64,000 nt of DNA from a virus. Positions 1,082 through 63,799 of this stretch are shown one piece after another (the stretch's first letter is position 1; each line of letters opens with the position of its first letter). The stretch spans positions 2,400 through 66,399 of IMG/VR virus record IMGVR_UViG_3300020442_003756. One strand, written 5' to 3'. The position numbers and the translations under genes are program-made. The notes below the pieces were generated by a model, which did no database searches, was not told the DNA's origin, and was given only the letters and a program-made list of their open reading frames with translations.

Positions 1082-1110
1082 AATATACACTAACAATCTT
1101 TAATTTCCAA
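1082..1110 (-). promoter_or_regulatory. Early/middle promoter TTGG-N18-GTATATT upstream of primase
   Basis: Same bipartite motif with exact 18-nt spacer recurs at 49655, 50026, 52367 and 54734; resembles the Bacteroidota -33/-7 promoter. Confidence 0.7.
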
Positions 1111-4736: not shown

Positions 4737-5363
4737 TTATATATAATGTCCACCACCTAACCATAAAACAAAAGATTTCCTAGTTCCTGATAACACAGGA
4801 GCTACTCTGTGCATCATAAAAGAAGGAAAAATAAAAACACAACCTCTTTTTCTTGGTGCTTTAATAATGTGAGAATGATTTGAATCTTTTGCATCCTCAG
4901 GAAAAGGACCTCCTTTAAATAATTCTAAATCTCCTCCTTCATAATCATCAGCTTCTGAAAGTTGGACTGTTATTGAAATTTTTCTTTGTGAACCATGAGA
5001 AGGTCCAATATCTTGATGCCATTCATATTTTCCTCCTTTACTACCTACATATTCTGTATATTGAATTTGTTCAGGCATTGTATGTAAACTAAAATTCCAT
5101 AAATTACTATTAGCTTCTATAGCCATATGATTTAATTTTTCATATAACCACCACCATTGAGTATTTTGTGGTACCCATTTTACTCTAGATACTCTAGTTC
5201 TACCATCATTCTCCCCTCCAAAAGTTGAAGCAGTATGTAAAGGTAATTTTATAACATCTTTTTCTATTTTTTTTAATTCTTCTTCGCTAAAACCTTGTTC
5301 AAAATAATAATAATTAGTTTGATCAAGTGAATCAGGTTGAGTCATTTGTAGTACTCTATTCAT
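4737..5363 (-). CDS. 2OG-Fe(II) oxygenase (PKHD/prolyl-hydroxylase-like)
   Basis: WHQD, RKISITVQLS, YEGGDL, FPSFMMHRVAPVLSGTRKSFVLW. Confidence 0.9.
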   Translation of the reverse strand: MNRVLQMTQPDSLDQTNYYYFEQGFSEEELKKIEKDVIKLPLHTASTFGGENDGRTRVSRVKWVPQNTQWWWLYEKLNHMAIEANSNLWNFSLHTMPEQIQYTEYVGSKGGKYEWHQDIGPSHGSQRKISITVQLSEADDYEGGDLELFKGGPFPEDAKDSNHSHIIKAPRKRGCVFIFPSFMMHRVAPVLSGTRKSFVLWLGGGHYI

Positions 5364-14500: not shown

Positions 14501-16676
14501 TACCTTGAGCACCAGTATCTCCTTTGTCTCCAACTGCAACAAAAGAACAAATTATATCTTCAGCATTTGAAAATGGTGAAGCAGCTGAACTTGCTTCATT
14601 AGAAATATCTAAAGTCCACCAAGAACCATTATCTGTTAAATCTGTTATAGCAAATGTTAAGAATTGGGTGGCATCAGTTCTATTAGAAATTCTAATATGT
14701 CCTTTAATTGCGGAAGTTACTGAATCTAAAGTTTGTAAAGTTGATTCAATACTTGCTCCACCTCCATCATTTTGAGAAATATAAGCAGCTGTAGAGCTAT
14801 TTTGTGTTGAATTATTTAATCTTATATCACCTGAACCTGGGTCTGCTGCACTTGTAGAAGAATCAAATGAATAATCAAAAGAGTTACCTCCAAAATTACC
14901 ATCTGTACCTTGAATACCTTGAGTACCTTGTGTACCAGTTTCTCCTTGTGCCCCAGTAATACCTTGTATTCCTTGAGTACCTTGTGTTCCTGTTGTTCCT
15001 TGAATACCCTGAGCTCCAGTTGTTCCTTGTGTTCCAGTTGTTCCTTGTGCACCAGTAATACCTTGAATACCTTGAGTTCCTTGAGTTCCTGTTTCACCTT
15101 GAGTTCCATCTGTACCTTGTGTACCAGTATTACCTTGTGTACCAGTAGCACCTTGCGTTCCAGTTGTTCCCTGAGAACCAGTAATACCTTGAGCTCCAGT
15201 TGCTCCTTGAGTTCCTAACTCACCTTTTTGTCCTTTTACACCATCAGTAGAAGAACCAGAAATACCTTGAATACCTTGTATTCCTTGTGTACCTGTTGTA
15301 CCCTGAATACCTTGAGTACCTGTTGTACCTTGTGTTCCAGCTCCTGTTATACCTTGAATACCTTGAGTACCCTGAGTTCCAGTTTCTCCTTGAGCACCTT
15401 TTGATCCAGTAATACCTTGAATACCTTGAATACCTTGTGTTCCTTGAATACCTTGAATACCTTGGTTACCTGTTTCACCCTGTGCACCAGTTGTACCTTG
15501 AATACCTTGAGTTCCCTGAATACCTTGAGTTCCTTGAATACCTTGTGTACCTTGAGTTCCTTGAGCACCTGTAATACCCTGAATACCTTGAATACCTTGA
15601 ATACCTTGTGTACCAGTTGTACCTTGTGTTCCTGTTTCACCTTGTGTACCAGTTGTACCTTGTGTTCCTGTTTCACCTTGTACCCCAGTATCTCCTTTTT
15701 GACCAGTTGCTCCTTGTGAACCTGTTATACCCTGAGTACCTTGAGCTCCTGTTATACCTTGTATACCTTGTATACCTTGAATTCCTTGTGTGCCCTGTGT
15801 ACCTTGTGTTCCTTGTGCTCCAGTTATACCTTGTATACCCTGAGTTCCGGTTTCACCTTGAGCACCTACTTCTCCTTTTTGACCTTTTGTACCAGTAATA
15901 CCTTGAGTACCTTGTACACCTTGAGTACCCTGAGTACCAGTAACACCTTGAATACCTTGTATACCTTGGGTACCTTGAGTACCTTGTGTTCCTTGTGTAC
16001 CAGTAGCTCCCTGTGTACCAGTTGCACCTTGTGTTCCAGTTATACCTTGAATACCTTGTATACCTTGTATACCTTGAGCACCTTGATCACCTTCAGCTCC
16101 TTTTTGTCCTTTTGTACCTGTTATACCTTGAGCACCTTGAGTTCCAGTTTCTCCTTGAGCACCCTTTTCTCCTTTTTGACCTTTTTCACCTGTTTCACCT
16201 TGTATACCCTGTATACCTTGGGTACCTTGAGTACCTTGTGTTCCTTGTGTACCAGTCTCACCTTGTGTACCTGTTGTTCCTTGGGTACCTTGAGTTCCAG
16301 TTGCACCTTGTGCACCAGTAATACCTTGAATTCCCTGAATACCTTGTGTGCCTTGAGTACCTTGAGTACCTTGAGCACCTGTAATACCTTGACTACCAAT
16401 TGGACCAGTTTCACCTTGAGTACCTGTTGTACCAGTTGCTCCTTGAGCACCTTTTGCACCTTTTTGACCAGTAGTACCTTGGGCACCTGTTGTACCTTGA
16501 GAACCTACACCTGAGGCAAATGATAAGTTACCGGATCCATCTGTTTTTATTACTTGGTCTGCTGAACCATCTGAGGTTGGATAGATAAGTCCACTAGCGG
16601 TAAGTGCTGTGGATACATTTAATTTGTTTAATTCTGCGTTAGAACCACTAACGACAACTTTTTTCCAATTGGGCAT
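8562..16676 (-). CDS. Giant collagen-like tail/fibre protein with C-terminal S74 intramolecular chaperone
   Basis: Long Gly-X-Y tracts, four globular interruptions, C-terminal [28 protein letters not shown]. Confidence 0.92.
8945..16500 (-). repeat. Collagen Gly-X-Y coding repeat tracts (9-nt periodicity, CCTTG-rich on + strand)
   Basis: Directly visible repeated acc/ttg codon pattern. Confidence 0.95.
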
Positions 16677-16772: not shown

Positions 16773-19700
16773 TTACTTTTTATCCCTAAGATTGTTGATT
16801 TGTTTTTGTTGTTCTTTAATCGCTTCAATTAATAAAGGAACTATTTTGTCATAGTTAACAGCTTTATATCCATTTTCTCTAGTTTGAACAACTTCTGGTA
16901 ATACTTCTTCAATTTCTTGTGCTATAACACCAATATCAGATCCTTTATTTCCATGAATATATTTAATACCTTCTTCATCTAATTTTTTCCAATCAAAGTT
17001 AACACCACTTATTTGAAGAACTTTTTCAATTGGATTATCAATTGGTAAAATATTTTCTTTTAATCTTTTATCTGAAGTAGAGTAAGCAACAATATCATTA
17101 GTAGCTTCAATTTTACCTATTGTTGTAGTAGCAGTAATATTTCCAACAGTAAGACCATTACTTACAGTTAAAGAACCACTTACTTCTAAAGCTTGAGAAG
17201 GAGAACTATCATGAATACCAATATAACCAGAACTTCCATCTACAAAGAATGCGTGTGTTGGTGTTGTACCAGTATCTGATTCAACCCTAAAATCAACATT
17301 TACACTATTATCATTAATAATAACTTCTCCTAATCCTGGTGTTGAACCTGGATTAAGAGCAGAAAATAATCTTCTTGTTCCTACTACTACATCAAATCTA
17401 TCAACAGTACCAACTCTTGAAGCACTAATATTAGTATCACTATCAGGTCCAAATACTATACTTGTTTCATTTGCTGATAATTTTAATTGATCACTATCCT
17501 CATGCCATTTAATATCGGAAGAACCAGTTATACCACCATTACCACCTAATATTGCAAAAGCTCTATTAGCATCATTAGTAATATCAGCAGCAGCTCCTTT
17601 TTGTCCTTTAGTACCAGTAATACCTTGAGCACCATTTGAACCATTAGATCCATTTTTAACATATTGAACAAGTACATCTTCACTATTAGAAAAAGTACCA
17701 TTTTGTTCTACGTCTGCAGAACTAACATCTAGTAAAGCTCTTGTACCATTAACTGTATTAATAGTATAAGAAGCAACAGTAATTATATCACCAGCTGTTG
17801 TTCCATAAATTATAAATTGAGAATTTTTAGAAAATAAATTATTATGAGTAGCACCATCTGCATCTTCTAAAGCAATTGAAATTTGTGTTGAACTACCTAT
17901 AGTTGAATTATTAAATCTAATTTGTCCAGCTGCACCCGCCATATCAGTACTAGTACTATAAGTATAATTTAATCCTGCTGTAGCACCTTTTTGACCAGTT
18001 ATACCTTGAGCTCCAGTAATTCCTTGTGCACCCGTTATACCTTGAGTACCTGTTATACCTTGAGCACCCGTAATACCTTGTACACCTTGTATACCTGTTA
18101 TACCTTGTGCACCCGTTATACCTTGAGCTCCAGTAATACCTTGAGTACCTGTTATACCTTGAGCACCCGTAATACCTTGTGCACCTGTTATACCTTGTGC
18201 ACCTGTTATACCTTGAGCTCCAGTAATACCTTGGGCTCCAGTAATACCCTGTGCACCTGTTATACCTTGAGCTCCAGTAATTCCTTGTGCACCCGTTATA
18301 CCTTGTGCACCTGTTATACCTTGTGTACCTTGAGAACCTGTAATACCTTGTACACCTTGTATACCTGTTATACCTTGTGCACCCGTTATACCTTGAGCTC
18401 CTGTTTCTCCTGTTATACCTTGAATACCTTGAATACCTTGAGTACCTGTTATACCTTGAATACCTTGTGTACCCTGTGTTCCTTGAGTACCCGTTATACC
18501 TTGGATACCTTGTACGCCTTGAGCTCCAGTAATACCTTGAGCACCTTGAGCACCAGTATCACCTTTATCACCTGTAGTAACAAATGAACATATAATATCT
18601 TCTGAATTACTAAATGGTGAATCTGATGAATAAGCTTCTTGTGAAATATCTATTGTCCACCAACCCGTATTATCAGTTAAATCACTAATAGCAAATAAAA
18701 TAAATTGAGAAGCATCAGTAATATTAGATAACCTAACATGTCCTTTAACGGCTGAACCAACTGAATCTATTGATTGCATGAATGATGAAATATCATTTCC
18801 ATTATCATCAGTATCATCAATATACATTGCGGTAGCACCTTTTTGTCCAGCTGCTGCACCTGAAAGTGAATTTAATCTAACTTTTCCAGTACCTGGATCT
18901 GCTGGTGAAGCCGAAGAACCATCAAAAGTATAATCAAATGTAGCACCCCCAAAATTACCATCAGTACCTTGAGCACCTGTTGTACCTTGGGTACCTGTGG
19001 TACCTTGAGGACCAACAGTACCAACTCCTGTTGTACCTTGAATACCTTGAGAACCTAAAATACCTTGAATACCTTGAATACCTTGGGCACCAGTTGTTCC
19101 TTGTGTTCCTTCACCTATTTCACCTTTTTGTCCTTTTTCTCCAGTTGCGCCTTGAGCACCGGTAGCACCTTTTTGTCCTTTGGTTCCAGTAATACCTTGA
19201 GTACCTTGGGCACCAACTTCACCTTTTTGTCCTTTTTCTCCTTTTTCTCCTGTTTCACCTTGAGCACCAGTAATACCTTGAATACCTTGAACACCTTGTG
19301 CACCAACTTCTCCTTTAGCACCTTTTGAACCTTTTTGACCAGTTATACCTTGAATACCTTGAGCACCAGTTGCACCTTTTTCACCTGTTATACCTTGTAT
19401 CCCTTGAGCACCTGTTGCACCTTGTGCACCAGTTTCACCTTTTTGTCCTTTTTGTCCTTTTTGACCTGTTATACCTTGAATACCTTGAATTCCTTGTACA
19501 CCTTGTGCACCTGTAGTTCCTTGAATACCCTGAATACCTTGAGTACCTTGTGCTCCAATTTCTCCTTTTTGTCCTTTTTCTCCTGTTTCACCTTGTGTAC
19601 CAGTAGCACCTTGTGTACCTGTTTCACCTTGAGCACCCTTTTGTCCTGTAATACCCTGAATACCTTGAGTTCCAGTTGCTCCTTGAGTACCTGTTGCTCC

Positions 19701-20570
19701 TTGAGATCCTGTTATACCTTGAATGCCCTGAGCACCTGTAGTACCTTGAGCACCTTTTGCACCTTCTATTCCTTGTGCACCTGTTATACCTGTAATACCT
19801 TGTGGACCTGTAGCTCCTGTTATACCTTGAACACCTTGAGCTCCTTGTGTACCCGTTGCTCCTTTAGCCCCACTTGAACCAGTAGTACCTTGAATACCCT
19901 GAGGACCTACATTACCTAAATTACCTTGAGGTCCTGTAGCACCTTGTGCACCTGTATTACCAGTTGTTCCTTGTATACCTTGAGCACCTGTAGTACCTTG
20001 GGTACCAGTTTCACCCTGAGTACCAGTAGCACCTTGAGTACCAGTTGTACCTTGTGTACCAAAAGTACCTTGAATACCTTGAGCACCAGTTGTTCCTTGA
20101 ATTCCTTGTTGTCCTGTAGCTCCTTGAGTACCTGTTGTACCCTGTGTACCTGTAGGACCAGTTGTACCACTAATACCTTGAGTACCTGTTGCACCTTGAG
20201 CACCTGTACTACCTTGAATACCTTGAGCTCCAGTTATACCTTGTGTTCCTTGAATACCTTGAGCACCAGTAGCTCCTTGAGCACCAATAGAAGAATCATA
20301 ATATAAAACACCAGAACCTGTATCAGCTACTAAAACTTGTAATGCATTTGAAGCGGAAGGATTTGATTGAACATTTTCAATTTTAAATTTATCTGCAGAA
20401 GTAGCTAAGTGAAAAGTAGATGAACCAGAAACTGCTAAAGAACCTGAAATGCCAATTTCATATCCAACTGTAGAACTAGGGTTAAATGCATCAAATGATT
20501 GGGATACCTGTAACGCTTCAATAGTTTGTCCCGTTTCTACACCAGTTTTTATTATCTTTTTAAGAGCCAT
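16773..20570 (-). CDS. Collagen-like tail/fibre protein 2 with C-terminal S74 chaperone
   Basis: Gly-X-Y tracts, VDFRVESD beta segment, SDKRLKEN..FDW..GVIAQEIE..Y.KIVPLLIEAIKEQ. Confidence 0.92.
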   Translation of the reverse strand: MALKKIIKTGVETGQTIEALQVSQSFDAFNPSSTVGYEIGISGSLAVSGSSTFHLATSADKFKIENVQSNPSASNALQVLVADTGSGVLYYDSSIGAQGATGAQGIQGTQGITGAQGIQGSTGAQGATGTQGISGTTGPTGTQGTTGTQGATGQQGIQGTTGAQGIQGTFGTQGTTGTQGATGTQGETGTQGTTGAQGIQGTTGNTGAQGATGPQGNLGNVGPQGIQGTTGSSGAKGATGTQGAQGVQGITGATGPQGITGITGAQGIEGAKGAQGTTGAQGIQGITGSQGATGTQGATGTQGIQGITGQKGAQGETGTQGATGTQGETGEKGQKGEIGAQGTQGIQGIQGTTGAQGVQGIQGIQGITGQKGQKGQKGETGAQGATGAQGIQGITGEKGATGAQGIQGITGQKGSKGAKGEVGAQGVQGIQGITGAQGETGEKGEKGQKGEVGAQGTQGITGTKGQKGATGAQGATGEKGQKGEIGEGTQGTTGAQGIQGIQGILGSQGIQGTTGVGTVGPQGTTGTQGTTGAQGTDGNFGGATFDYTFDGSSASPADPGTGKVRLNSLSGAAAGQKGATAMYIDDTDDNGNDISSFMQSIDSVGSAVKGHVRLSNITDASQFILFAISDLTDNTGWWTIDISQEAYSSDSPFSNSEDIICSFVTTGDKGDTGAQGAQGITGAQGVQGIQGITGTQGTQGTQGIQGITGTQGIQGIQGITGETGAQGITGAQGITGIQGVQGITGSQGTQGITGAQGITGAQGITGAQGITGAQGITGAQGITGAQGITGAQGITGAQGITGAQGITGTQGITGAQGITGAQGITGIQGVQGITGAQGITGTQGITGAQGITGAQGITGQKGATAGLNYTYSTSTDMAGAAGQIRFNNSTIGSSTQISIALEDADGATHNNLFSKNSQFIIYGTTAGDIITVASYTINTVNGTRALLDVSSADVEQNGTFSNSEDVLVQYVKNGSNGSNGAQGITGTKGQKGAAADITNDANRAFAILGGNGGITGSSDIKWHEDSDQLKLSANETSIVFGPDSDTNISASRVGTVDRFDVVVGTRRLFSALNPGSTPGLGEVIINDNSVNVDFRVESDTGTTPTHAFFVDGSSGYIGIHDSSPSQALEVSGSLTVSNGLTVGNITATTTIGKIEATNDIVAYSTSDKRLKENILPIDNPIEKVLQISGVNFDWKKLDEEGIKYIHGNKGSDIGVIAQEIEEVLPEVVQTRENGYKAVNYDKIVPLLIEAIKEQQKQINNLRDKK
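17995..18420 (-). repeat. Near-perfect (GIT-GAQ)n hexapeptide tandem repeat
   Basis: GITGAQ repeated many times in the translation. Confidence 0.9.
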
Positions 20571-22645: not shown

Positions 22646-24607
22646 TTAAATAGTGACTTTAAGTATTATTGGACCAAATTGATCAACACTACCTACTTTT
22701 AAAATATTAAAATTAGAACCTAGCGCAAATTGTTGTGATGGTACAAAACTTGTAGAATTACCAGCACCTGTGACACCTAAACCACTCATTACTACTGGAT
22801 TAATATTTGACTTACTTCCATATGTACCTGCACCTTCTTGAGTTCCAGCTGGTAATGTTATATTCATTGGTGAAGTTTGTTGATTATTAGCAAATAATCT
22901 AACACTATTCAATTGACTACTTCCACTTAATCCACCTGGAGCAGTAATTGTTATAGCAGTTACATCACCTGAACTATTAGTTACACTAGCAGAAAAAGCA
23001 GTTATGTAAGCTAATGCATCACCCGAAGAGCCATTACTATTAGCTACTGCACAACTAAAATGATTATCATCAATTCTTGTTATTGCTCTAAGTAAATAAT
23101 CTTGACCACCAGCATTTCTTACCATTACAACATCACCATTAGTTAAACCATGATTAGAACTTGTAACATTAAGTGTTGTAGTTACTCTATTCCATGATTT
23201 GCCTCCTAATTGATTTCCTGTTGAAGTTAATTCTAATGTATAATCAGAACCGCCTTGATCAATAATATATCTAATTTGACTATTATAAGAAGTAGAACCA
23301 CCACCTGGTGCAGAACTTCCACTTGCACCTGTAATTCCTTGAATACCTTGAACACCTTGAGCACCAGTTGTTCCCTGAGTACCTTGTGTTCCAGTACCTA
23401 TAATACCTTGTATACCTTGAACACCTTGTATACCTTGAACACCTTGTGTTCCTTGTATACCTTGTGCACCAGTAGTACCTTGTGTTCCAGCACCTGTTAT
23501 ACCTTGTATACCTTGTGTTCCTTGTGTTCCTGTAGTACCTTGAATTCCTTGAATACCTTGAATTCCTTGTATACCTTGTGCACCTGTTATACCCTGAATA
23601 CCTTGTGTTCCTTGAGTACCAGTTCCTGTTATACCTTGAATACCTTGAGTTCCTTGAATACCTTGTTGTCCCGTTTGACCTTGTGTACCAGTTTCTCCTT
23701 GAGTACCTGCACCGGTAATACCTTGAATACCTTGAATACCTTGTGTTCCTTGTGTACCAGTAGCACCCTGAGCACCTGTTATACCTTGAGCCCCTGTTGC
23801 ACCTGTAATACCTTGAATACCTTGTGCACCAGTAATACCTTGAGCACCTGTATCACCAGCCGCTCCTTGAACACCTTGGATTCCTTGAATTCCTTGTGTA
23901 CCTGTATCACCTTGAGCTCCAGTAATACCTTGAATACCTTGAATTCCTTGGGTTCCTTGAGCACCAGTAGCTCCTTGAGTTCCAATTGCATCAGCACCTT
24001 GTATACCTTGTATACCTTGTATTCCTTGGGTACCTTGTGTTCCAGTTGAACCACCCGCACCAGTTTCTCCTTGTGTACCTGTTATACCTTGAATACCTTG
24101 AATACCTTGAGCGCCAGTAGTACCTTGTGAACCACTTATACCAGCAATACCTTGAATACCTTGTGCACCTGTTATACCCTGAATACCTTGAGCACCTGTT
24201 GTTCCTTGAGTACCTCCAGGACCTGAAGGTCCTGTTATACCTTGAATACCTTGAATACCTTGTGTTCCTTGAGTACCTGTAGTACCTTGTGCACCAGTAG
24301 TACCCTGAGCACTTGCTAAAGAGTTAAAAAATACTTGACCATCAGCTGTATTAATTGCTAAAGCTTCTACTCTACCATCTAAACTACCTGATATATCCGT
24401 TAAACCATGTAAATGGATACCAGAAGTAATTGAACCTGAAGTAAAAGATTGACTAACTTGGAATGAACCAGTTACTAATAATGAGCCTGAAGTTTTAATC
24501 TGGTAATCTTGTATACCCGTAAATGCATCGACAGATTGAGAAACCTGTAGTGCTTCTATGGTTTGCCCAGTTGCGATCCCAGTTTTGGATAATGATTTAA
24601 GAGCCAT
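22646..24607 (-). CDS. Collagen-like fibre protein 3 (no S74 domain)
   Basis: Gly-X-Y tract about 23325-24305; N-terminus paralogous to fibre 2; HGLTNGDVV C-terminal beta domain. Confidence 0.9.
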   Translation of the reverse strand: MALKSLSKTGIATGQTIEALQVSQSVDAFTGIQDYQIKTSGSLLVTGSFQVSQSFTSGSITSGIHLHGLTDISGSLDGRVEALAINTADGQVFFNSLASAQGTTGAQGTTGTQGTQGIQGIQGITGPSGPGGTQGTTGAQGIQGITGAQGIQGIAGISGSQGTTGAQGIQGIQGITGTQGETGAGGSTGTQGTQGIQGIQGIQGADAIGTQGATGAQGTQGIQGIQGITGAQGDTGTQGIQGIQGVQGAAGDTGAQGITGAQGIQGITGATGAQGITGAQGATGTQGTQGIQGIQGITGAGTQGETGTQGQTGQQGIQGTQGIQGITGTGTQGTQGIQGITGAQGIQGIQGIQGIQGTTGTQGTQGIQGITGAGTQGTTGAQGIQGTQGVQGIQGVQGIQGIIGTGTQGTQGTTGAQGVQGIQGITGASGSSAPGGGSTSYNSQIRYIIDQGGSDYTLELTSTGNQLGGKSWNRVTTTLNVTSSNHGLTNGDVVMVRNAGGQDYLLRAITRIDDNHFSCAVANSNGSSGDALAYITAFSASVTNSSGDVTAITITAPGGLSGSSQLNSVRLFANNQQTSPMNITLPAGTQEGAGTYGSKSNINPVVMSGLGVTGAGNSTSFVPSQQFALGSNFNILKVGSVDQFGPIILKVTI

Positions 24608-50485: not shown

Positions 50486-51334
50486 TTATATATTGTAAGT
50501 AAATTGATAACCAGAAAAAGAAGCATTAAATTTAGGTATTCTATAATTTTTTAATTCGACTTCAGGTTCAGGTAAAGTATTTCCTAATACAAAAGATTTT
50601 GATGTCCAAATACCATCACCCGCTGTATGGGAAGTATAATCCTCAACATCTTCTTCTGTCATATCAACAAATGGTAAATAATTTTCATTTTGTTTTCTTA
50701 CCCACCTTACTTGTTCAAATTGATTCATTCTAGGTGCGTAAATATCAAAAGGTAAATGTTCAAGATAAACATCTAAAGCTTTACTTACAGGTAATTGATT
50801 TTTATATAACCATTGAGCCCCTTTTCTATTTAAAATATAGGCATGAGCCGCCCATTGATTAGGCATAAAACGTCTATATGCCCCCCAAGTTGAATTTCCA
50901 TGTAATGGTCTATAATCTCTATCATCAACTAATTTGATTCTTTTATTATATTTACCGAGAAAAATACAACCCCAATTTTTTTCTTCAATTCCATCTCTTA
51001 TTTCTTCAATTGTTTCATAATTAAATACTGAGGTTTTAACTATATCATCTTCAAAAAAACAAGCTGTTTCATCTCCACTATCTAAAAATTGTTTCCAAGC
51101 CATTCTATGAGATAAAGCACAACAAATAATTCCAACAGTCCACCAACCATTAGGATCAACAACAACAGGAGCTAAATTTTCTTTAATAAATTCTTTATCA
51201 TGTTGATATACTTGTCCATCAAGAGCAGTAACAACAGTTGTATTTTCAGTACCTAATAATTCTAAGGTTCTATCTCTTCTATGTTTATGTCTTTCTAAAT
51301 TAATGACATAATTTCTTCCAAATCCTAAATTCAT
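50486..51334 (-). CDS. GT25 family glycosyltransferase
   Basis: YVINLERHKHRR, ALDG, CALSH..AW, FFEDD, AHAYILNRKGA, ALDVYL. Confidence 0.88.
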   Translation of the reverse strand: MNLGFGRNYVINLERHKHRRDRTLELLGTENTTVVTALDGQVYQHDKEFIKENLAPVVVDPNGWWTVGIICCALSHRMAWKQFLDSGDETACFFEDDIVKTSVFNYETIEEIRDGIEEKNWGCIFLGKYNKRIKLVDDRDYRPLHGNSTWGAYRRFMPNQWAAHAYILNRKGAQWLYKNQLPVSKALDVYLEHLPFDIYAPRMNQFEQVRWVRKQNENYLPFVDMTEEDVEDYTSHTAGDGIWTSKSFVLGNTLPEPEVELKNYRIPKFNASFSGYQFTYNI

Positions 51335-55102: not shown

Positions 55103-56233
55103 CTACAGCGTATTCATTAAGTGTAACCATTCCTCTACTCGTTTTTCCCACGACTGTTCTATAACCCATTTCTTATTATCCACCGTTTGCTTATACCACT
55201 TATAATGAAACTCCTTATCATCATGACACGAACCATTATCCCTGAATATAACATCCATCATCAATTGCCTCACATCCGAATCTATCCTCCCACTATCAAT
55301 TATATTTCCTCTGCCTATCAACAATGAATCTAAATTACCCGTATTTGTAGAACATATTTTAACTCCACCCATCATCATTTCCAAGGCAGTTATACAATAC
55401 GTTTCTGGGTACTTACTAGGATATAACCAATATTCTGCTTTACTAATTTCCCTATACAAGTCATCTGGCGCTAAGGCTCCCTTCCAAGTCACACCATCTT
55501 GCTCATCTGGAACATGACCCCACCTCTCACTATAAGGCGGACAACAAACAACCAAAGTAGCATCTGGTAATCCCTGTTTTATTTGAGGCCACATAGCAAG
55601 TAAATTATCTAACCCTCTATCTGTTGCACTACTATAAATAAACCTATTATTGACCTTATCTTCCTCAATGTATTCCCAATCTCTAGGATCAATAGCATTA
55701 TTCACTACTTGTATATACGTATGATCATTTTGGGGTATGTAGCCAAGAGCTTTGTTCACTTCTTTTTTAATTAAAGGTACTTGCCATTCACTCACACATA
55801 TCATTTTAGTTAATCTCTCATCATGTAATGTTGCTTTTACTTCATCATTACTTAATTTCCCACCTTTATAATACTCATGCCAATATTCATTATGAACCCA
55901 AAATAATGATTTTTTAAAATTTATATTACAATCATCTAAGACTTTCATATAATTAATATAGTTGATAGCTATTACCCAATCAAAATCTACAAACGCAATT
56001 GCATTAACTCCTCTATTATTGCCTTGATTTATTATCACATCATGATGAATGTAAGTTACTTTATTTACATAACAACCTTCAACATCACCTACTACATAAA
56101 CGCTATGTCCTTTCTTAGCTAATTCCTCACTTAGTTTAATAACACAATATTCACTTCCACCTATACCTTGATCAACCCAAGTTTGACTATTCCATTTCGG
56201 ATTAGCATAGCCGACATAAAACATTATTTTCAT
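55103..56233 (-). CDS. GT4-like (GT-B) glycosyltransferase
   Basis: GIGGSEY, WVHN, CVSEWQ, YSSATDRGL, YPSKYPETYCITALE. Confidence 0.88.
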   Translation of the reverse strand: MKIMFYVGYANPKWNSQTWVDQGIGGSEYCVIKLSEELAKKGHSVYVVGDVEGCYVNKVTYIHHDVIINQGNNRGVNAIAFVDFDWVIAINYINYMKVLDDCNINFKKSLFWVHNEYWHEYYKGGKLSNDEVKATLHDERLTKMICVSEWQVPLIKKEVNKALGYIPQNDHTYIQVVNNAIDPRDWEYIEEDKVNNRFIYSSATDRGLDNLLAMWPQIKQGLPDATLVVCCPPYSERWGHVPDEQDGVTWKGALAPDDLYREISKAEYWLYPSKYPETYCITALEMMMGGVKICSTNTGNLDSLLIGRGNIIDSGRIDSDVRQLMMDVIFRDNGSCHDDKEFHYKWYKQTVDNKKWVIEQSWEKRVEEWLHLMNTL

Positions 56234-56805
56234 TACTCTATTGTTATTGTTCCTTCTTTAACTGCTACTAATTCACTTTGCCAAATGTTAATTGCAATAG
56301 CATATCTAACACCTCTGGTCACTTGTGTTACTCTATGTAAGTGATTACCTGCATTAAATATTACTAATCTATTAAATTTAGCTTCAATTCTTTCTGGTGT
56401 ATTTTCTCTACCTCTGGAGTGTATTTCTAAATAACCACCATCTATATCCATTGGTTTAGGATAAAATACTGTTCCAACTAATGGTGTTAATATTTCACCT
56501 CCATTATTACCACCTGTTCTAGCCCAATGTTCTTCATCCTTATCAAAATGTTGCATTAAATCACTTTGTGGATGTCCATCACCATAAACACCTGTCCAAT
56601 ATTCAAAACCAATTAGGTTATTAAGTACCAACTGGGAATTATATCTCCAAATGTATTCAATTAATCGTTTTTTAATTGTATTTGCTTCACTATTCCACCA
56701 ACCATTCCACCACATGAAATTTCCATTTGGTCCAAAGAATGATTCATCGTTATCAATTGCTTCTAATAACGGTTTATCTTTTATAAAATCGTCTATTACT
56801 ATCAT
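56233..56805 (-). CDS. 2OG-Fe(II) oxygenase
   Basis: EYW, HFDKDE, GGYL, FNRLVIF, HRVT.V..G.RYAIAINIW. Confidence 0.85.
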   Translation of the reverse strand: MIVIDDFIKDKPLLEAIDNDESFFGPNGNFMWWNGWWNSEANTIKKRLIEYIWRYNSQLVLNNLIGFEYWTGVYGDGHPQSDLMQHFDKDEEHWARTGGNNGGEILTPLVGTVFYPKPMDIDGGYLEIHSRGRENTPERIEAKFNRLVIFNAGNHLHRVTQVTRGVRYAIAINIWQSELVAVKEGTITIE

Positions 56806-56806
56806 A

Positions 56807-58237
56807 TTATTTATGGTCTAAATTTTTAATAAAACTTACTACTACGTATCTTGTTCCTTCAGTTACAGGTCTAGCTCCATGTTTATGAGTTATATTACCT
56901 GGATGAAGTGTACACATTCCAATTTCACTTGGATTAGCTAAATATTTGTATTTAGGGAACCAAGTACCCCCACCTTTAAATTCACCTGGATTTAAATTAA
57001 CTAATGTTGTTATATTACTATAATCATGATGAATATCTAAATGTGGTTGTTCATCTGCTTTATATCTAATAACAAATGATTCATCTCTTAAATGTTTCCA
57101 ACTAGAACCTTCTAATTCGAATCTATCTATAGCTAATGGTTTAATATAATGATTAATTACTTTATTATAAATTTCCTTCATACCTAATGTTTCCATTAGA
57201 TTATCTGTTGTAGGATAAAATTCATGTCTATCAGTAGTCCACTTATGTGCTTCAGCTAAGTTAATTAGTTCCTTACAAAAACGTTTTGTAAATAAAGGAA
57301 ATAAATAAACATGAGTAGCTGGTTCATCAATAATTAAATCATATTTTCTGTCAATTAATTGTTTATTAATGTATTTATAGCTCCATTCTTCCCAATTACT
57401 AGCATCTAATATTTCAAATTTAGTTCTTGGTGATTCAAAATTTTCATCAATTGTTACTGTATTGCCTATATTAATTGAAGGTTTTTCTGCTTCAGCTTTA
57501 ACTTGTTTTACATATTCAGGTGTAAATTCAGTTAATGAATCTTTATCATAATGAGATGATTGATTAATATAATCAACATTAAAAGCATAGGCCCTAAAAT
57601 CTGAATTACCTAATACTTCATTACAATCTTGTCTAGGATGTTTACAATGAATAGCAGACATAAATTCATCATATGGTATTAAATTATCTAAGTAACCTGA
57701 ATCTAATATTTCTTTCATACCCTTTCTAGATATCATATAAGCATGAGTATTAAAAGTATAATCACATCTAACTAATGCCTCATTTACTCGTTCTTCCTTA
57801 TCTTTTTCTAAAGCACTTCTACCTAAGTAACAAATACTCCAATCATCATTTAAATGATTAAGTTCAAATTCAGGAAATTTATCAAATTCCTTGTTTAAAT
57901 AAAAATCTTCTTCTAATATTAGAACATTATGATGACCAGCATTATAAGCACCTTCAATTACTTGATAATGAGATAAAGCACAGCCTATTTCACCTGGAGT
58001 TAAGTCTCTACTCCACCAATCATTTTGAGGTTCTTTAGGGTTACTAGGTAATTTCCACCAATCAGCTTGTTTAAACCCATAAGGTGAATCAATATTACCC
58101 TTAACTAAATCCCAACCATTAATAGCAGGAAATTCATACCATGGAACTGGGTCTTTGAAATTTAGTTGTTCAAGATTATCATATATTCTAGCCGAGTCTG
58201 TAGCTAAGTTAATAACGTAAGTAAAATCTATTTTCAT
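56807..58237 (-). CDS. Fusion of COLGALT-like GT25 glycosyltransferase and PLOD-like lysyl hydroxylase
   Basis: N-half LTPGEIGCALSHY..LILEED..WSICYLGR..THAYMIS..IPYDEF..KHP; C-half VYLFPLFT..FC.ELI, FVIRYKADEQPHLDIHHD, GGGTWF, HPGNITHKHG.RPVTEGTRYVVVSF. Confidence 0.88.
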   Translation of the reverse strand: MKIDFTYVINLATDSARIYDNLEQLNFKDPVPWYEFPAINGWDLVKGNIDSPYGFKQADWWKLPSNPKEPQNDWWSRDLTPGEIGCALSHYQVIEGAYNAGHHNVLILEEDFYLNKEFDKFPEFELNHLNDDWSICYLGRSALEKDKEERVNEALVRCDYTFNTHAYMISRKGMKEILDSGYLDNLIPYDEFMSAIHCKHPRQDCNEVLGNSDFRAYAFNVDYINQSSHYDKDSLTEFTPEYVKQVKAEAEKPSINIGNTVTIDENFESPRTKFEILDASNWEEWSYKYINKQLIDRKYDLIIDEPATHVYLFPLFTKRFCKELINLAEAHKWTTDRHEFYPTTDNLMETLGMKEIYNKVINHYIKPLAIDRFELEGSSWKHLRDESFVIRYKADEQPHLDIHHDYSNITTLVNLNPGEFKGGGTWFPKYKYLANPSEIGMCTLHPGNITHKHGARPVTEGTRYVVVSFIKNLDHK

Positions 58238-60764: not shown

Positions 60765-60879
60765 CTTTACTTAATAGCTGTTGTAGCTTTTGAATTTTTA
60801 ATTTAATTTCTTGTGTTTGAGGTTTTAATAACTTCAATTTCACAATCTGTTCTATAATGCTTTCTTTAATTTCTTGCAT
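60751..60879 (-). CDS. Small hypothetical protein (42 aa, not in ORF track)
   Basis: MQEIKESIIEQIVKLKLLKPQTQEIKLKIQKLQQLL fills the gap between genes. Confidence 0.45.
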   Translation of the reverse strand: MQEIKESIIEQIVKLKLLKPQTQEIKLKIQKLQQLLSKDVGN

Positions 60880-61207
60880 AATCGTCTTCAATTCGAACTA
60901 TATCGTCTTCACCGAAATAAGTTCCTGTTTGTACTTCTATAAATAACACTTCCTCATCGGTTTCATTCCAAGCCCTGTGTTTTGCTCCTAAAGGTATGTG
61001 AATTGATTCACCTGGACCTCTAAATACTTTTTCATCATCTAAAACTATAGTTAAATTACCTCTAACTACAGTCCATTGTTCTCTTCGTTTATCATGATAT
61101 TGATATGATAATCTACTATTAGGGTTAACTAATATTTGTTTTACTTTACAATAAGGGGCATCTAATAATACCTCGTATCTACCCCATGGTCTTATACTAC
61201 GTTCCAT
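60866..61207 (-). CDS. Mannose-6-phosphate isomerase type II cupin (ManC C-terminal-like)
   Basis: RPWG.Y, RLSYQYH..R.E.W.VV.G, IEVQTGTYFGEDDIVRIEDDY. Confidence 0.9.
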   Translation of the reverse strand: MERSIRPWGRYEVLLDAPYCKVKQILVNPNSRLSYQYHDKRREQWTVVRGNLTIVLDDEKVFRGPGESIHIPLGAKHRAWNETDEEVLFIEVQTGTYFGEDDIVRIEDDYARN

Positions 61208-61208
61208 T

Positions 61209-62003
61209 TTAAAATCCTAAATGTTTATCTCTACAAAATTCTAAATCAACAATACTGCTTCTAATATCCATCCCCTCTATATTAAATGGGTTTTTCCAAG
61301 GATTAACTGTTCTCCAACCTGGTCCCCATTTTTTAAATAAATACTCAAAATTTTTATCATTTGAGTATGATAATTTTTTGTATAGTTCGGGACTATACTT
61401 TTTAGTGTTCATTCCTGTTTCATAATAATCATGATCAGCTCCATCACTCATTGTACCATTGCCATGATAATATTTAGATTCCAAATTTAACACTGTCTTT
61501 ACCGGTTTTATATGCAGTCTCATTATGTAGTCACTATCTTCGCCGTAGCAAGGATATAGATTTTCATCAAAATAACCATGACTTTGCACTACCCAATCTT
61601 TAATTAAAAACAAATCAAATGAACCTAAACCAAAATCTCCACCATTCCCAAACACTAATCCTGTTTCTTCATCTTGAGCTGCTTCATACATTTCTTTTAA
61701 AAACCCACTACCAAAACTACAATCATGATTAATAATAATCCAATAAGGGGAATGCATAAATGATTTCATAATCATATTCCAACCACCAGCACAACCAATG
61801 TTATAAGGCATATGAAATACCTTTAGATTTTTAATATGTTTGTGCATCCAATTATCAGCAACTAATTTTTCTAATTCCTGATCTAATTCGCCCCCACTAT
61901 TATTAATAATAATATAATTTTCAACTGGGAAGTCAACACTATTAATTTGGCGTTTTAGCCATTTTATTTCGTTAACTATTAATGTTCCAACTACTGGTAT
62001 CAT
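61209..62003 (-). CDS. GT2-like glycosyltransferase
   Basis: IIINN, NIGCAGGWN, INHD, FDENLYPCYGEDSDY. Confidence 0.85.
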   Translation of the reverse strand: MIPVVGTLIVNEIKWLKRQINSVDFPVENYIIINNSGGELDQELEKLVADNWMHKHIKNLKVFHMPYNIGCAGGWNMIMKSFMHSPYWIIINHDCSFGSGFLKEMYEAAQDEETGLVFGNGGDFGLGSFDLFLIKDWVVQSHGYFDENLYPCYGEDSDYIMRLHIKPVKTVLNLESKYYHGNGTMSDGADHDYYETGMNTKKYSPELYKKLSYSNDKNFEYLFKKWGPGWRTVNPWKNPFNIEGMDIRSSIVDLEFCRDKHLGF

Positions 62004-62887
62004 ATTTGTTCTTTTAAGTATTCTTCTAATGTTTTTAATTTACCTATGTTTAATAAGCTAGTTTTTAAAGCATATTTTCTATCATGACCTAACCTATCTT
62101 CTACAAATTTATATTTTACTTTTTTACCTAATAATTCACCTACCTTTTGTACTACTTCTTTATTAGTCCATCTATCACCTGAACCTATATTTAAAGCACC
62201 TGTATTTAGTAAGCTATCATTTTGCATCATATCAAAGATAATTCTAACATTATCCTCAACCCACATCCATTCTCTAACTTGTTCACCATCACCATAAATT
62301 GGAATTGGAATATCATTTTTAATACTATTAAATATAGTAGGTAAAAACTTTTCACTGTTTTGATCAGTACCAAAATTATTACAAGTACGAGTTATAATAT
62401 GAGGTAAACCATAAGTTCTACCTGCAGCCATAACTAACATTTCAGCTGCTGCTTTAGTAGCTGAATAATAAGATGATGGTTCTAATCTATCAAATTCATG
62501 TGATGGTTTTTGTCCTTCAACATCACCATATACTTCATCAGTTGATATTTGTACAAATCGTTTTAATGAAGGTATTTGTCTAGCTATTTCAAGCATATTA
62601 AATGTACCTTCAACATTAGATTTTATAAATGGTTTACCATCTTTTATTGATCTATCAACATGTGATTCAGCAGCAAAATTAACTATGTAATCAGCATCTT
62701 GGCAAGCAAAACTAACATCATCACAAATATCTTTTATTATTAAATCATAGCTGTAACCATCTAACCTACTTTTATCAGCAGCATAAGTCATATTATCAAT
62801 CACAATACAATGAGCACCCTGATCAGTAGCATATCTAACAAAAGCGGAACCAATAAATCCTAAACCACCTGTAACTACTATTTTCAT
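62000..62887 (-). CDS. rmlB: dTDP-glucose 4,6-dehydratase
   Basis: VTGGLGFIGS, NFAAESHVDRSI, ISTDEVYG, YSATK, DRLGHDRKYA. Confidence 0.93.
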   Translation of the reverse strand: MKIVVTGGLGFIGSAFVRYATDQGAHCIVIDNMTYAADKSRLDGYSYDLIIKDICDDVSFACQDADYIVNFAAESHVDRSIKDGKPFIKSNVEGTFNMLEIARQIPSLKRFVQISTDEVYGDVEGQKPSHEFDRLEPSSYYSATKAAAEMLVMAAGRTYGLPHIITRTCNNFGTDQNSEKFLPTIFNSIKNDIPIPIYGDGEQVREWMWVEDNVRIIFDMMQNDSLLNTGALNIGSGDRWTNKEVVQKVGELLGKKVKYKFVEDRLGHDRKYALKTSLLNIGKLKTLEEYLKEQI

Positions 62888-63363
62888 TGACCTATTTTAT
62901 CTTTATTACTTATTACTATATCTTTAACATGGTTAACTTTATCAACTATTACTTTTACTACCCCAGGAATTGAATGCCAAGGTATACTATGGTCATGTTC
63001 AGGAGCATAATGATTATCTATTAAATAAGTAACTATAGTATTGGGTTCTAATGTTAAAAAACCATGTGCTTTAGTTTTAGGAACAAATATAGCTTCCTGG
63101 TCATTTAATTCAAACCATTCTACTTCTTTAGTTTCTAAATCATATAAAAAATCAATTATTTTACCTTGTATTACTTTAAGATATTTATTTTGTGCTGTTT
63201 CAAATGCTTGGTAGTGCATACCTCTAAATGTATGAACATTAGGGTTAACACTAATATTAGCTTGTAACCATTTTTTAACTGATTCAGGACCGCATTGTAA
63301 ATCTATTGGCGTAAAAGAACCTCTATCATCAATAAAGGTTTTATGATTTCTTACTTTTGGCAT
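62884..63363 (-). CDS. rmlC: dTDP-4-dehydrorhamnose 3,5-epimerase-like
   Basis: DDRGSF, FRGMHYQ, QNK, AHGFLTL, Y.P, SNKD. Confidence 0.85.
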   Translation of the reverse strand: MPKVRNHKTFIDDRGSFTPIDLQCGPESVKKWLQANISVNPNVHTFRGMHYQAFETAQNKYLKVIQGKIIDFLYDLETKEVEWFELNDQEAIFVPKTKAHGFLTLEPNTIVTYLIDNHYAPEHDHSIPWHSIPGVVKVIVDKVNHVKDIVISNKDKIGQ

Positions 63364-63799
63364 TTATTATATCTGGATTTTGTTTATAAGTTTGTTGTGT
63401 TATTAAATCTTTTAATTTAGTAGTTGACCAACCATGAGCTCTACTAGTATATAATACAGGAATATTTAGATGGTCTCCTGTAAATCGTTTGCCTAAATAA
63501 TCTTCGCCTAATACTCTTAAATCAGGTTTAAAGTGTTCAATTAAACCTAATAATTCATCTTCAGTACTATAAATAAATACTTCATCTATATACTGAATTG
63601 ACATTAATGCTCTATATCTTTCATATAATGGAATTACTGGTTTGTATTTGTTTCTATTATACGCAGATGGATCAGCATGTAAAAACACTATGAAATGATC
63701 ACAATGTTTTTTAGCATCCTCAAATGTATAAATGTAACCTGGATGTAATAAATCGAAATTACCAGCAGTAAAACCTACAATTTTTTTAATAGCCTTCAT
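63341..63799 (-). CDS. Cytidylyl/adenylyltransferase (TagD/RfaE-II-like)
   Basis: AGNFDLLHPGY, ER, IDEV, LGEDY, SRAHGWSTT. Confidence 0.85.
   Translation of the reverse strand: MKAIKKIVGFTAGNFDLLHPGYIYTFEDAKKHCDHFIVFLHADPSAYNRNKYKPVIPLYERYRALMSIQYIDEVFIYSTEDELLGLIEHFKPDLRVLGEDYLGKRFTGDHLNIPVLYTSRAHGWSTTKLKDLITQQTYKQNPDIINAKSKKS

Follow-up and report, generated by a model that had tools for sequence, protein, structure and literature searches.

Animal collagens are regarded as the typical place of hydroxylysine and of its glycosides, with one enzyme (PLOD/LH) hydroxylating the lysines and another (COLGALT) adding the first sugar. As far as the accessible parts of two papers go, the sole non-animal case supported by biochemistry is that of the mimivirus proteins L230 and R699 (PMC5802723, PMC9546862). 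L230 is a collagen lysyl hydroxylase and hydroxylysine glucosyltransferase that acts on the virus's own collagen-like proteins. It is presented, in the available portion of its description, as a protein of 895 amino acids (aa) whose transferase belongs to the bifunctional architecture of the human lysyl hydroxylases (LH) and not to GT25 (PMC5802723). A third mimivirus protein, R655, is GT25-like, with an activity still called putative in the consulted sections of PMC9546862. On the bacterial side, dioxygenases were predicted in 2010 to modify collagen-like proteins, and the same paper, as far as its text was available, regards the tandem dioxygenases of cyanophages as a puzzle and the excess of 2-oxoglutarate (2OG) oxygenases in marine phages as unexplained (PMC2938197). 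In an excerpt of a further paper, the use of viral prolyl 4-hydroxylases (P4H) 'remains cryptic' (PMC9301287). Here we describe a gene of the virus record IMGVR_UViG_3300020442_003756, in which a glycosyltransferase (GT) domain of family GT25 and a lysyl hydroxylase domain of the PLOD type are joined in one chain. The window, that is, the whole stretch of DNA analysed, has 64,000 nucleotides and corresponds to bases 2400-66399 of this 66,399-bp IMG/VR record (CheckV completeness 41%). We propose, with a probability of about two in three, that the fusion gene encodes a bifunctional enzyme which, within the cytoplasm of the host, modifies collagen-like tail fibres of the phage itself. Neither a GT25-hydroxylase fusion nor any tailed-phage lysyl hydroxylase was found in the searchable literature, the coverage of which is partial, and a description could have been missed.

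The fusion gene is organized as follows.

56807..58237, minus strand: fusion open reading frame (ORF), one chain of 476 aa made of a GT25 domain, a linker and a PLOD-type lysyl hydroxylase domain
57518..58237, minus strand: GT25 domain, residues 1-240, GT-A fold, delimited from PF01755, the COLGALT1 match and the model alignment
57398..57517, minus strand: linker, residues 241-280, the length of which differs between homologues
56810..57397, minus strand: PLOD-type lysyl hydroxylase domain, residues 281-476, a double-stranded beta-helix with an LH-specific N-terminal extension

The coordinates proposed by the first-pass annotation of this DNA, 56807-58237, coincide exactly with a single ATG-initiated minus-strand ORF in the ORF listing of the window. 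All the motifs it had quoted are present in the translation, namely WSYKYINKQLIDRKYDLIIDEPATHVYLFPLFTKRFCKELI, FVIRYKADEQPHLDIHHD, GGGTWF and HPGNITHKHGARPVTEGTRYVVVSF in the C-terminal half and LTPGEIGCALSHY, LILEED, WSICYLGR, AYMISRKG and IPYDEFMSAIHCKHP in the N-terminal half. Translation confirmed the coordinates given here for individual residues. The same methionine begins 25 of 25 aligned homologues, which supports the start codon. The gene is closely flanked by others on the same strand: 4 bases are common to its start and to the stop of a 55-aa ORF, a single base lies between its stop and gene 56233..56805, and the latter overlaps gene 55103..56233 by 1 base.

Pfam recognizes GT25 at residues 6-193 (PF01755, E 2.9e-15, 57.1 bits against a cut-off of 24) and an OGFOD2-like domain at residues 293-369 (PF25238, E 3.9e-8), with a sub-threshold match to 2OG-FeII_Oxy_3 at residues 389-470. 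When the fusion protein was compared by phmmer with all the chains of the Protein Data Bank (PDB), 10 distinct sequences were retrieved at E <= 1, every one of which is a collagen enzyme: four LH3 chains (best E 3.6e-26, query residues 281-470), two mimivirus L230 chains (E 1.3e-23 and 2.4e-22) and four COLGALT1 chains (E 7e-16 to 1.9e-15, query residues 73-232). On this sequence evidence, the likeness of both halves to collagen enzymes is far beyond chance. An AlphaFold2 model computed with 25 homologues (mean predicted local distance difference test, pLDDT, of 82.1; 197 residues at 90 or above) comprises two confident domains and a low-confidence linker at residues 252-272. In every sequence and structure comparison made, the fusion protein belongs both to Pfam GT25 and to the PLOD-type hydroxylases.

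Structural comparisons of the two domains were made with VIA-align, and Foldseek gave the same ranking. Residues 273-471 superimpose on the hydroxylase domain of L230 (6ax6_B) with Z 23.6, a root-mean-square deviation (rmsd) of 2.2, 189 aligned residues and 30% identity. In contrast, the best other oxygenase (3dkq) reaches Z 13.2 (rmsd 3.0, 157 aligned residues, 13% identity) and the prolyl 4-hydroxylases Z 12-13 (rmsd 2.9-3.8, 145-169 aligned residues, 11-23% identity). By sequence, only LH chains were matched by this half, and no P4H chain was retrieved at E <= 1 by phmmer among all PDB chains. The PLOD-like identity that had been put forward for this half is therefore upheld, the domain grouping with LH3 and L230; the result that would have spoken against it, a grouping with generic P4Hc proteins, is seen neither in the Z values nor in the sequence search. 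The residues of the predicted active site are listed below, with the roles assigned to their L230 counterparts in the accessible part of PMC5802723.

57023..57031, minus strand: H403-H404-D405, of which H403 and D405 are predicted Fe2+ ligands (L230 His825 and Asp827), from the alignment with LH3
56879..56881, minus strand: H453, predicted third Fe2+ ligand (L230 His877), from the alignment with LH3
56849..56851, minus strand: R463, predicted binder of the 2-oxoglutarate C5-carboxylate (L230 Arg887), from the alignment
57062..57064, minus strand: Y392, predicted 2-oxoglutarate binder (L230 Tyr814), at the same spacing from the triad

H403, D405, H453, Y392 and R463 are invariant in 25 of 25 homologues and in a 13-sequence alignment spanning the other architectures of the family. 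The L230 dimer, according to what could be consulted of PMC5802723, is tail-to-tail and locked by Leu873 in a Tyr pocket; an invariant isoleucine, Ile449, occupies the position of this leucine in the fusion protein. Pfam finds no match in the fusion protein to PF25342, the GT profile of PLOD (PLOD-GT). The fusion protein is not an orthologue of full-length PLOD, because it is devoid of the GT and accessory domains.

As for the N-terminal half, its nearest solved structure is the catalytic domain of COLGALT1, in agreement with the COLGALT-like character initially suggested. Residues 1-240, modelled with a GT-A fold and pLDDT mostly above 85, align with COLGALT1 (9evj_A 338-575) with Z 25.3 (rmsd 3.0, 227 aligned residues, 25% identity). 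Mimivirus R655 follows with Z 17.7 (rmsd 3.2, 192 aligned residues, 19% identity), then bacterial GT25 beta-1,4-galactosyltransferase with Z 15.0-16.0 (rmsd 3.5-4.1, 174-178 aligned residues, 21-22% identity). Searched alone against the PDB chains, this half matches COLGALT1 with E 2.9e-16 and retrieves zero bacterial GT25 chains at E <= 1. The metal motif, the uridine pocket and the catalytic base of COLGALT1 are kept. In the following lines, roles are those that the available parts of the cited papers attribute to COLGALT1 residues.

57980..57994, minus strand: GEIGC, G82-C86, predicted uridine pocket (COLGALT1 G408/G411/C412), from the sequence alignment; roles from PMC12003778
57905..57913, minus strand: E109-E110-D111, predicted Mn2+ motif (COLGALT1 Glu435-Asp436-Asp437), from the alignment; roles from PMC12003778 and PMC12987934
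57665..57670, minus strand: D190-E191, predicted catalytic base (COLGALT1 Asp522, Glu523), from the alignment; roles from PMC12987934
57749..57754, minus strand: F162-N163, in the place of the acceptor-binding Tyr494-Trp495 of COLGALT1, from the alignment; roles from PMC12987934
57527..57538, minus strand: S234-L235-T236-E237, candidate lid loop (COLGALT1 Ser569/Thr571/Glu572), from a motif match only; roles from PMC12003778 and PMC12987934

Invariance in 25 of 25 homologues is observed for G82, E83, G85 and C86, for the E109-E110-D111 motif and for D190-E191. Both metal ligands (E109 and D111) are kept, and the middle residue, Asp436 in COLGALT1, is changed to Glu. Tyr494 of COLGALT1 becomes F162, a position that is Tyr or Phe among the relatives. 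In the candidate lid, L235, T236 and E237 are at least 90% conserved, and the structural alignment of residues 1-240 reaches chain residue 575. The fusion protein has one GT domain only and thus departs from the two-domain architecture of COLGALT1, of which the alignment spans chain residues 338-575. It is not an orthologue of COLGALT1, because it is devoid of the N-terminal domain and because two of the five acceptor residues differ.

The window encodes three collagen-like fibres, two of which are candidate substrates.

8562..16676, minus strand: fibre 1, giant collagen-like protein of 2704 aa; 684 G-X-Y triplets, with 66 lysines in Y and 0 in X; candidate substrate
16773..20570, minus strand: fibre 2, collagen-like protein of 1265 aa; 221 triplets, with 23 lysines in Y and 0 in X; candidate substrate
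22646..24607, minus strand: fibre 3, collagen-like protein of 653 aa; 107 triplets and 0 lysine; not a candidate substrate

The Pfam scan was made on fibre 2, where Collagen is matched with E 6e-99 and a Peptidase_S74 chaperone domain is found at the end; the C-terminal stretch of fibre 1 is similar to this Peptidase_S74-bearing end. Taking fibres 1 and 2 together, the 89 lysines present in G-X-Y runs are all in Y (89/89, 0 in X), the position on which collagen lysyl hydroxylases act. Salt-bridge pairs of the KGE/KGD type were considered as a reason for the placement of lysine in Y and were set aside, as they cover just 23 of the 89 sites, a minority. Proline is found 41 times in X and once in Y in the collagen triplets of the window. 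Since it is nearly never in Y, the fibres would offer essentially no substrate to a classical collagen prolyl 4-hydroxylase. Threonine is abundant in Y in the fibres (168 and 75 sites).

The fusion is widespread. A word-indexed protein search yielded 552 clusters (90% identity) at E <= 1e-3. The best 120 of these 552 share 49-100% identity with the query over at least 92% of its length and all carry the same two Pfam domains. The names met among these best 120 clusters are only 'GR25 family glycosyltransferase involved in LPS biosynthesis' (where LPS stands for lipopolysaccharide), 'glycosyltransferase family 25 protein' and 'hypothetical protein'. The exact sequence of the fusion protein is present on 4 contigs, and the closest ESM-Atlas clusters having the GT25-LH architecture are 96-100% viral. 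In IMG/VR, relatives are encoded by 141 stretches, from which 80 loci were kept. Reading frames were reconstructed for 27 of the IMG/VR hydroxylase relatives and distribute as follows.

GT25-LH, the class of the window: about 456-498 aa, 6 of 27 ORFs
GT4-GT25-LH: about 788-827 aa, 7 of 27 ORFs
GT4-LH: about 558-603 aa, 12 of 27 ORFs
LH alone: 239 aa, 1 of 27 ORFs (locus L069, 9875..10606)
DUF6445-like N-terminus followed by LH: 461 aa, 1 of 27 ORFs (locus L060, 9350..10738)

The hydroxylase of the window is 36-51% identical to those of the other IMG/VR classes and about 28% identical to those of cyanophage isolates. Close to the fusion gene, the window also encodes a GT4-like protein (55103..56233), which aligns over its full length, with 31-46% identity, with the N-terminal parts of the GT4-LH and GT4-GT25-LH ORFs; a homologue of its gene was found in 71 of 81 loci. 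From these comparisons, this phage distributes over neighbouring genes a module that related phages encode as a single polypeptide.

Cultured phages carry a further arrangement. Protein WLW37668.1 of Synechococcus phage S-8S55 (OQ504983.1, 5995..7860) has 621 aa, in which GT25, PLOD-GT (PF25342, E 4.5e-48) and LH domains are combined, and is annotated as a 2OG-Fe(II) oxygenase domain protein only. S-CAM9 (NC_031922, around 35.7 kb) and S-PRM1 (NC_055761, around 131.3 kb) contain frames of about 618-619 aa with the same hydroxylase (83-84 bits). In the records of these three cultured-cyanophage relatives, the names are 'hypothetical' or '2OG-Fe(II) oxygenase' only. The PLOD-GT profile was unmatched in the record of the window and in five near-complete relatives, which is a weak negative result, the profile having matched no control genome either.

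The genomic context links the hydroxylase to collagen. A run of at least 8 G-X-Y triplets lies within the sampled flanks in 48 of the 80 IMG/VR loci. Seventy loci have architectures other than GT25-LH; where at least 2.5 kb of upstream sequence is available, a collagen run is located 0.8-2.2 kb upstream of the hydroxylase gene in 36 of 38 of them, and the remaining two are two odd architectures (DUF6445-like with LH, and LH alone). The gene order in the five loci listed is, on one strand, the collagen fibre, an oxygenase of about 200 aa (2OG-FeII_Oxy_3), sometimes a GT2, and the hydroxylase fusion. In the collagens near hydroxylase loci, lysine was counted 1807 times in Y and 24 times in X, on contigs that are partly redundant. 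The near-complete IMG/VR genomes having the hydroxylase all contain large collagen ORFs and a GT25, either fused or stand-alone (5/5).

Twelve complete genomes of isolates were also compared, a small hand-chosen sample in which two of the three positives are of one genus.

S-8S55, S-CAM9 and S-PRM1: hydroxylase present; collagen in a large ORF 1.5-4 kb upstream; 22-24 lysines in Y, 0 in X
P-SSM2: hydroxylase absent; collagen present; 1 lysine in 314 triplets
Mel-JY01: hydroxylase absent; collagen present; 0 lysine in 216 triplets
vB_FspM_immuto (hereafter immuto), S-PM2, Syn9, P-SSM4, S-RSM4, P-HM1 and S-SSM7: hydroxylase absent; no collagen above the cut-off

With a one-sided Fisher test on these 12 isolates, the association of the hydroxylase with collagen gives p = 0.045 and that with lysine-bearing collagen p = 0.0045, keeping in mind that two positives share a genus. 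In S-8S55, the sole collagen segment of the genome (24 Y-lysines in 55 triplets) belongs to the fibre gene located 1.5 kb upstream of the enzyme. In the S-CAM9 and S-PRM1 fibres, lysines were counted on the sense strand only, since six-frame triplet counts include mirror artefacts: in these genes, the antisense of G-P-T repeats reads as G-P-V collagen-like runs. P-SSM2 (NC_006883, 18.5-27 kb) has a cluster of proline-rich collagen-like ORFs, with 234 prolines in X and 58 in Y, and no lysyl hydroxylase.

Considering these properties, the following mechanism may be envisaged. The C-terminal PLOD-type Fe(II)/2OG domain would convert the Y-lysine of G-X-K-G sequences in unfolded fibre chains into hydroxylysine, at the 89 sites of fibres 1 and 2. 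The N-terminal GT25 domain, as an inverting metal-dependent GT-A enzyme, would then glycosylate the hydroxyl so created with a sugar taken from a nucleotide donor, Asp190 acting as the base and Glu109/Asp111 holding the metal; galactose as this sugar is an assumption. Enzymes for several nucleotide sugars are encoded in the window. We infer lysine as the target, the collagen fibres as the protein substrate and the order of the steps. The strongest argument for the coupling of the two activities is that the fusion of the hydroxylase recurs with three different transferase families (GT25, GT4 and PLOD-GT), which suggests that the transferases use the hydroxyl made by their partner, with LH3 and L230 as precedents. 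The single-chain, two-step collagen-modifying enzyme imagined in the first-pass annotation thus gains support through domain identity, candidate substrates within the window and the fusion and synteny patterns of the family.

The fusion enzyme probably has a partner: two genes downstream, the phage encodes a GT4-like transferase that most relatives have fused to the hydroxylase. The genes that may take part in the same pathway are the following.

55103..56233, minus strand: GT4-like (GT-B) glycosyltransferase, 376 aa, identified by Pfam; homologue of the N-terminal domain of the GT4 fusions
56233..56805, minus strand: 2OG-Fe(II) oxygenase, 190 aa, PF13640; between the fusion and the GT4-like genes
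4737..5363, minus strand: 2OG-Fe(II) oxygenase, 208 aa, PF13640 (E 1.5e-13); 3.2 kb downstream of the giant fibre gene

The GT4-like enzyme, as part of the same module, would probably add a further sugar or an alternative first one; GT4 enzymes are retaining. The two small P4H-like oxygenases (56233..56805 and 4737..5363) would probably make other hydroxylations on the same fibres. An equivalent of the 190-aa oxygenase exists at the same place only in relatives of the GT25-LH class (8 of 81 loci). The 208-aa oxygenase has matches in 51 loci, with 44-50% identity in the 11 IMG/VR loci listed and 29% to S-8S55; from this similarity, it is the orthologue of the oxygenase of about 200 aa located between the collagen and hydroxylase genes in related phages. 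Because a fibre-adjacent gene of the window is orthologous to one lying between collagen and hydroxylase elsewhere, the ancestral cassette is seen as pulled apart in this phage: one oxygenase stayed at the fibre and the hydroxylase-transferase genes moved to a glycosylation island.

This island extends over 50-64 kb and contains a second GT25, a GT2, an NAD-dependent epimerase/dehydratase, an RmlC-like epimerase, a cytidylyltransferase-like protein and a cupin. The second GT25 is as follows.

50486..51334, minus strand: stand-alone GT25, 282 aa, PF01755 (E 2.2e-15), identified by Pfam

It is distant from the GT25 of the fusion, with 24-28% identity over about 110-180 residues to the domains of the relatives. 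Genes for activated sugars and sulphate are found at 60866..63799 and at 1624..2417, both on the minus strand; they encode a ManC-type cupin, the GT2, the NAD-dependent epimerase/dehydratase, the RmlC-like epimerase and two cytidylyltransferase-like proteins, together with an APS-kinase-like protein (PF01583, E 1.9e-15). The latter raises the possibility of sulphation besides glycosylation. A SegE-like GIY-YIG homing endonuclease (PF19835, E 3.1e-25) is encoded at 1090..1575 on the minus strand, next to the primase gene.

A late-promoter-like motif, ATATTTATA, occurs at 14 sites in the window versus 5.6 expected, and none of 100 shuffles reaches 14. All the sites but one (13/14) are on the minus strand. 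The sites include those at 16746, 20596, 22600, 24627, 27485, 41509, 44730, 47426 and 50478, and the first four of these lie just upstream of the fibre and neighbouring structural genes. The same scan of the window finds no ATATTTATA on the coding (minus) strand between 53,528 and 64,000, the enzyme region. Since the motif precedes the fibre genes and is absent from the coding strand of the enzymes, the latter may be made with a timing different from that of their fibre substrates. A promoter and terminator scan of 54.5-61.5 kb was uninformative (46 promoter-like sites versus 45.4 expected; 1 terminator-like site versus 2.0).

The bacteriophage origin of the DNA, as initially assumed, is supported by its viral record and by the content of the window, which includes a primase, tail-fibre genes and the gene of a baseplate wedge protein. 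Over its full length, the latter protein shares 44% identity with its counterpart in Flavobacterium phage immuto, and it shares 43.8% with the one of Microcystis phage Mel-JY01. A pattern scan of 185,579 species genomes returned one relative, on a 9.8-kb, 29% GC contig binned with a Flavobacteriaceae metagenome-assembled genome (MAG), and this contig is collinear with 54.6-63.8 kb of the window. Because of the baseplate similarity to immuto and of this collinear contig, the source phage is a myovirus, the host of which was probably a marine flavobacterium; it is not a T4-like cyanophage. When 8 kb of the window were compared by megablast with 50,697 phage records, zero matches were obtained, and tblastn of the fusion protein against phage records gave 12 records, all below 60% identity. 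The 80 loci retained out of 595 relatives of the baseplate gene include one contig above 100 kb, so that absences of the hydroxylase there carry no meaning.

Several observations weigh against a role of the fusion enzyme on the fibres. A first set concerns location. The fusion gene is 32 kb away from the nearest fibre gene in the window. None of 10 loci of the GT25-LH class has a collagen run in its flanks (up to 10 kb on each side), and collagen is present in the assembled part of one of five longer fragments of this class, at a distance of about 35 kb from the enzyme that recalls the layout of the window. Since adjacency is missing, the collagen link of the GT25-LH class comes from the homology (36-51%) of its hydroxylase to those of the syntenic classes and from the fibres of the window. 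Moreover, the fusion gene lies within the larger glycosylation island, with its second GT25, GT2 and sugar-nucleotide genes, and the transferase could serve another glycan.

A second set concerns the GT25 half. Trp495 of COLGALT1 is replaced by an invariant Asn163 and Lys470 by Ser141, so that two of the five acceptor-cleft residues known from the accessible COLGALT1 literature are changed. Because of these replacements, the acceptor of the GT25, or its presentation, may differ from that of COLGALT1. A search of 1.84 billion representatives with the GT25 domain gave 2331 matches at E <= 1e-3, the best 150 of which all have at least 77 bits. Most of these best 150 are stand-alone GT25 proteins of about 240 aa from marine metagenomes or longer phage fusions, some of them on 178-179-kb contigs. 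A cluster containing procollagen galactosyltransferase 1 of Holothuria ranks around 146th (77 bits, 31% identity), which means that more than 140 representative clusters outscore the animal COLGALT cluster. In a quick tree of 139 domains (138 representatives and the window, 12 of the 150 having been dropped because their match covered less than 150 profile positions), the window is not sister to the single animal COLGALT row. It falls in a 68-row group rich in phage fusions and the animal row in the other half; with no named bacterial LPS enzyme included, the set is unsuited to deciding between a COLGALT-like and an LPS-like affinity. Within the limits of a quick tree, the GT25 of the window stands in a phage-dominated radiation.

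A third set concerns the substrate. A coding-pattern scan of IMG/VR for (G-x-K)x4 found at least 120 stretches, 80 of which were listed; from the 50 of these on longer contigs, 41 records were searched with the hydroxylase profile. Two of these 41 records gave a match, and none of the 16 with a completeness of 90% or more did. A run of at least 8 triplets is present in 66 of the 80 listed loci, with 1141 lysines in Y versus 81 in X, in a sample that is biased towards Y by its selection pattern. Lysine in Y was therefore rejected as a diagnostic proof of substrate, as lysine-rich phage collagens occur without the hydroxylase (0/16 complete records). Finally, a literature search found no report of hydroxylysine in any phage, although a description could have been missed.

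The main rival, in our opinion an unlikely one, is that the hydroxylase half alone acts on the fibres, GT25 and the neighbouring transferases serving another acceptor, either Ser/Thr of the virion or a sugar already on the fibre. The loss of Trp495 and Lys470 points in this direction, as does the commonest architecture, GT4-LH (12/27 ORFs), which has no GT25, this enzyme being encoded far away in those genomes. Five transferases, counted as genes or domains, are also encoded in the window, along with several genes for sugar nucleotides, and its fibres are very rich in threonine in Y. However, the fusion to three transferase families is most simply understood if the transferase uses the hydroxyl made by its partner, as in LH3 and L230, and the fusion retains the base, the metal motif and the donor pocket known from the hydroxylysine galactosyltransferase.

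It is much less probable that the fusion is an auxiliary gene modifying host molecules during infection, lipopolysaccharide or a host protein, without any relation to the virion. The database names are all of the LPS type, but they derive from the title of the Pfam family and not from experiment, and nothing in LPS synthesis calls for the hydroxylase half. The gene stands among sugar-nucleotide and transferase genes instead of structural genes, and it is not preceded by ATATTTATA, unlike the fibre genes. Nevertheless, the family is nearly restricted to viral contigs and, outside the GT25-LH class, it is arranged in an operon-like manner with collagen fibre genes in the 36 of 38 informative loci mentioned above. 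In addition, immuto, the closest complete isolate, which lacks the enzyme, lacks collagen too.

To the same low degree, one may imagine that the hydroxylase acts on proteins of the virion or phage other than collagens, on their lysines or on another residue, the association with collagen being a by-product of the tail-fibre module. According to the title of a cited reference, human LH3 with GLT25D1 would modify a non-collagen-like domain, and the distance of 32 kb to the fibres also fits this idea. Against it, the enzyme tracks lysine-bearing collagen in the 12 isolates, and not collagen or tail fibres generally, and the sole collagen segment of S-8S55, with its 24 Y-lysines, is the one that lies 1.5 kb upstream of the enzyme. 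It is hardly credible that the fusion gene has decayed into inactivity or arose as a chimera during assembly, given the 552 clusters matched with the same architecture in the best 120 of them, the invariant catalytic residues of both halves, the exact sequence on 4 contigs and the confident modelling of both domains.

Modification of the collagen-like fibres by the fusion enzyme thus remains the reading that we favour. If it is true, bacteriophages make on their receptor-binding fibres the same lysine modification as animals make on collagen, such enzymes are widespread (552 clusters matched; 141 IMG/VR stretches) and the hydroxylase has been repeatedly fused in nature to different transferases. 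A function would also be provided for a part of the long-puzzling 2OG-oxygenase excess in marine phages. It is tempting to go further and to imagine that the tailed phages of marine bacteria possess a complete set of interchangeable enzymes for modifying collagen lysine, in which the PLOD-type hydroxylase is shuffled among GT25, GT4 and PLOD-GT and accompanied by P4H-like oxygenases, and with which they would build glycans linked to hydroxylysine on their collagen-like tail fibres. Such chemistry would then be common among ocean viruses instead of being peculiar to animals and giant viruses, and the phage GT25 and LH domains would belong to the reservoir that supplied the enzymes of eukaryotes and giant viruses; this extension is a tentative one, which we consider rather doubtful. 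The question bears on how phages tune the stability of their fibres or the recognition of their hosts. It also offers small enzymes compatible with the bacterial cytoplasm, which could serve to make hydroxylated and glycosylated recombinant collagen in E. coli. A direct test is within reach, since the system is present in three Synechococcus phages that are in culture.

Comparison with the known systems helps to place the fusion protein. Bacterial GT25 lipo-oligosaccharide enzymes, such as the beta-1,4-galactosyltransferase (8xlz/8xkd), are of the same Pfam family and have the GT-A fold. However, they have no oxygenase fusion and match the GT25 of the window much more weakly than COLGALT1 does. 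The catalytic domain of COLGALT1/GLT25D1 (9evj, 9u7h, 8zgc) shares the GT25 fold, the GxxGC motif, the E-x-D motif and the Asp-Glu pair, and its S-x-T-E lid has a candidate counterpart in the fusion. At its N-terminus, COLGALT1 bears a further GT domain, which is non-catalytic, and it is a separate protein complexed with LH3, whereas the GT25 of the fusion is covalently joined to its hydroxylase. With human LH3/PLOD3 (6fxk and others), the region aligned, 281-470, includes the LH-specific part ahead of the beta-helix core. LH3 is a protein of about 738 aa residing in the endoplasmic reticulum, in which GT and accessory domains precede the LH; these domains are absent from the fusion.

Within the virus world, mimivirus R655 (9crz) and R699 are homologues of collagen glycosyltransferases but exist as separate giant-virus proteins. 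R699, the collagen galactosylhydroxylysyl glucosyltransferase, matches the PLOD-GT domain of the S-8S55 relative with E 2e-33. The GT4-LH, GT4-GT25-LH and GT25-PLOD-GT-LH forms of related phages are encoded directly downstream of collagen fibre genes, whereas the GT25-LH of the window stands apart from the fibres, with its GT4 partner as a separate gene and the additional 190-aa oxygenase between the two. In its mode of action, the fusion protein would resemble mimivirus L230 and the LH3-COLGALT1 complex of animals. With L230 (6ax6, 9nev), it shares the viral single-chain association of a transferase with a C-terminal hydroxylase, the same Fe triad and the same Tyr and Arg 2OG binders. In the fusion, this association is condensed into 476 aa, GT25 takes the place of PLOD-GT, and the virus is a tailed bacteriophage.

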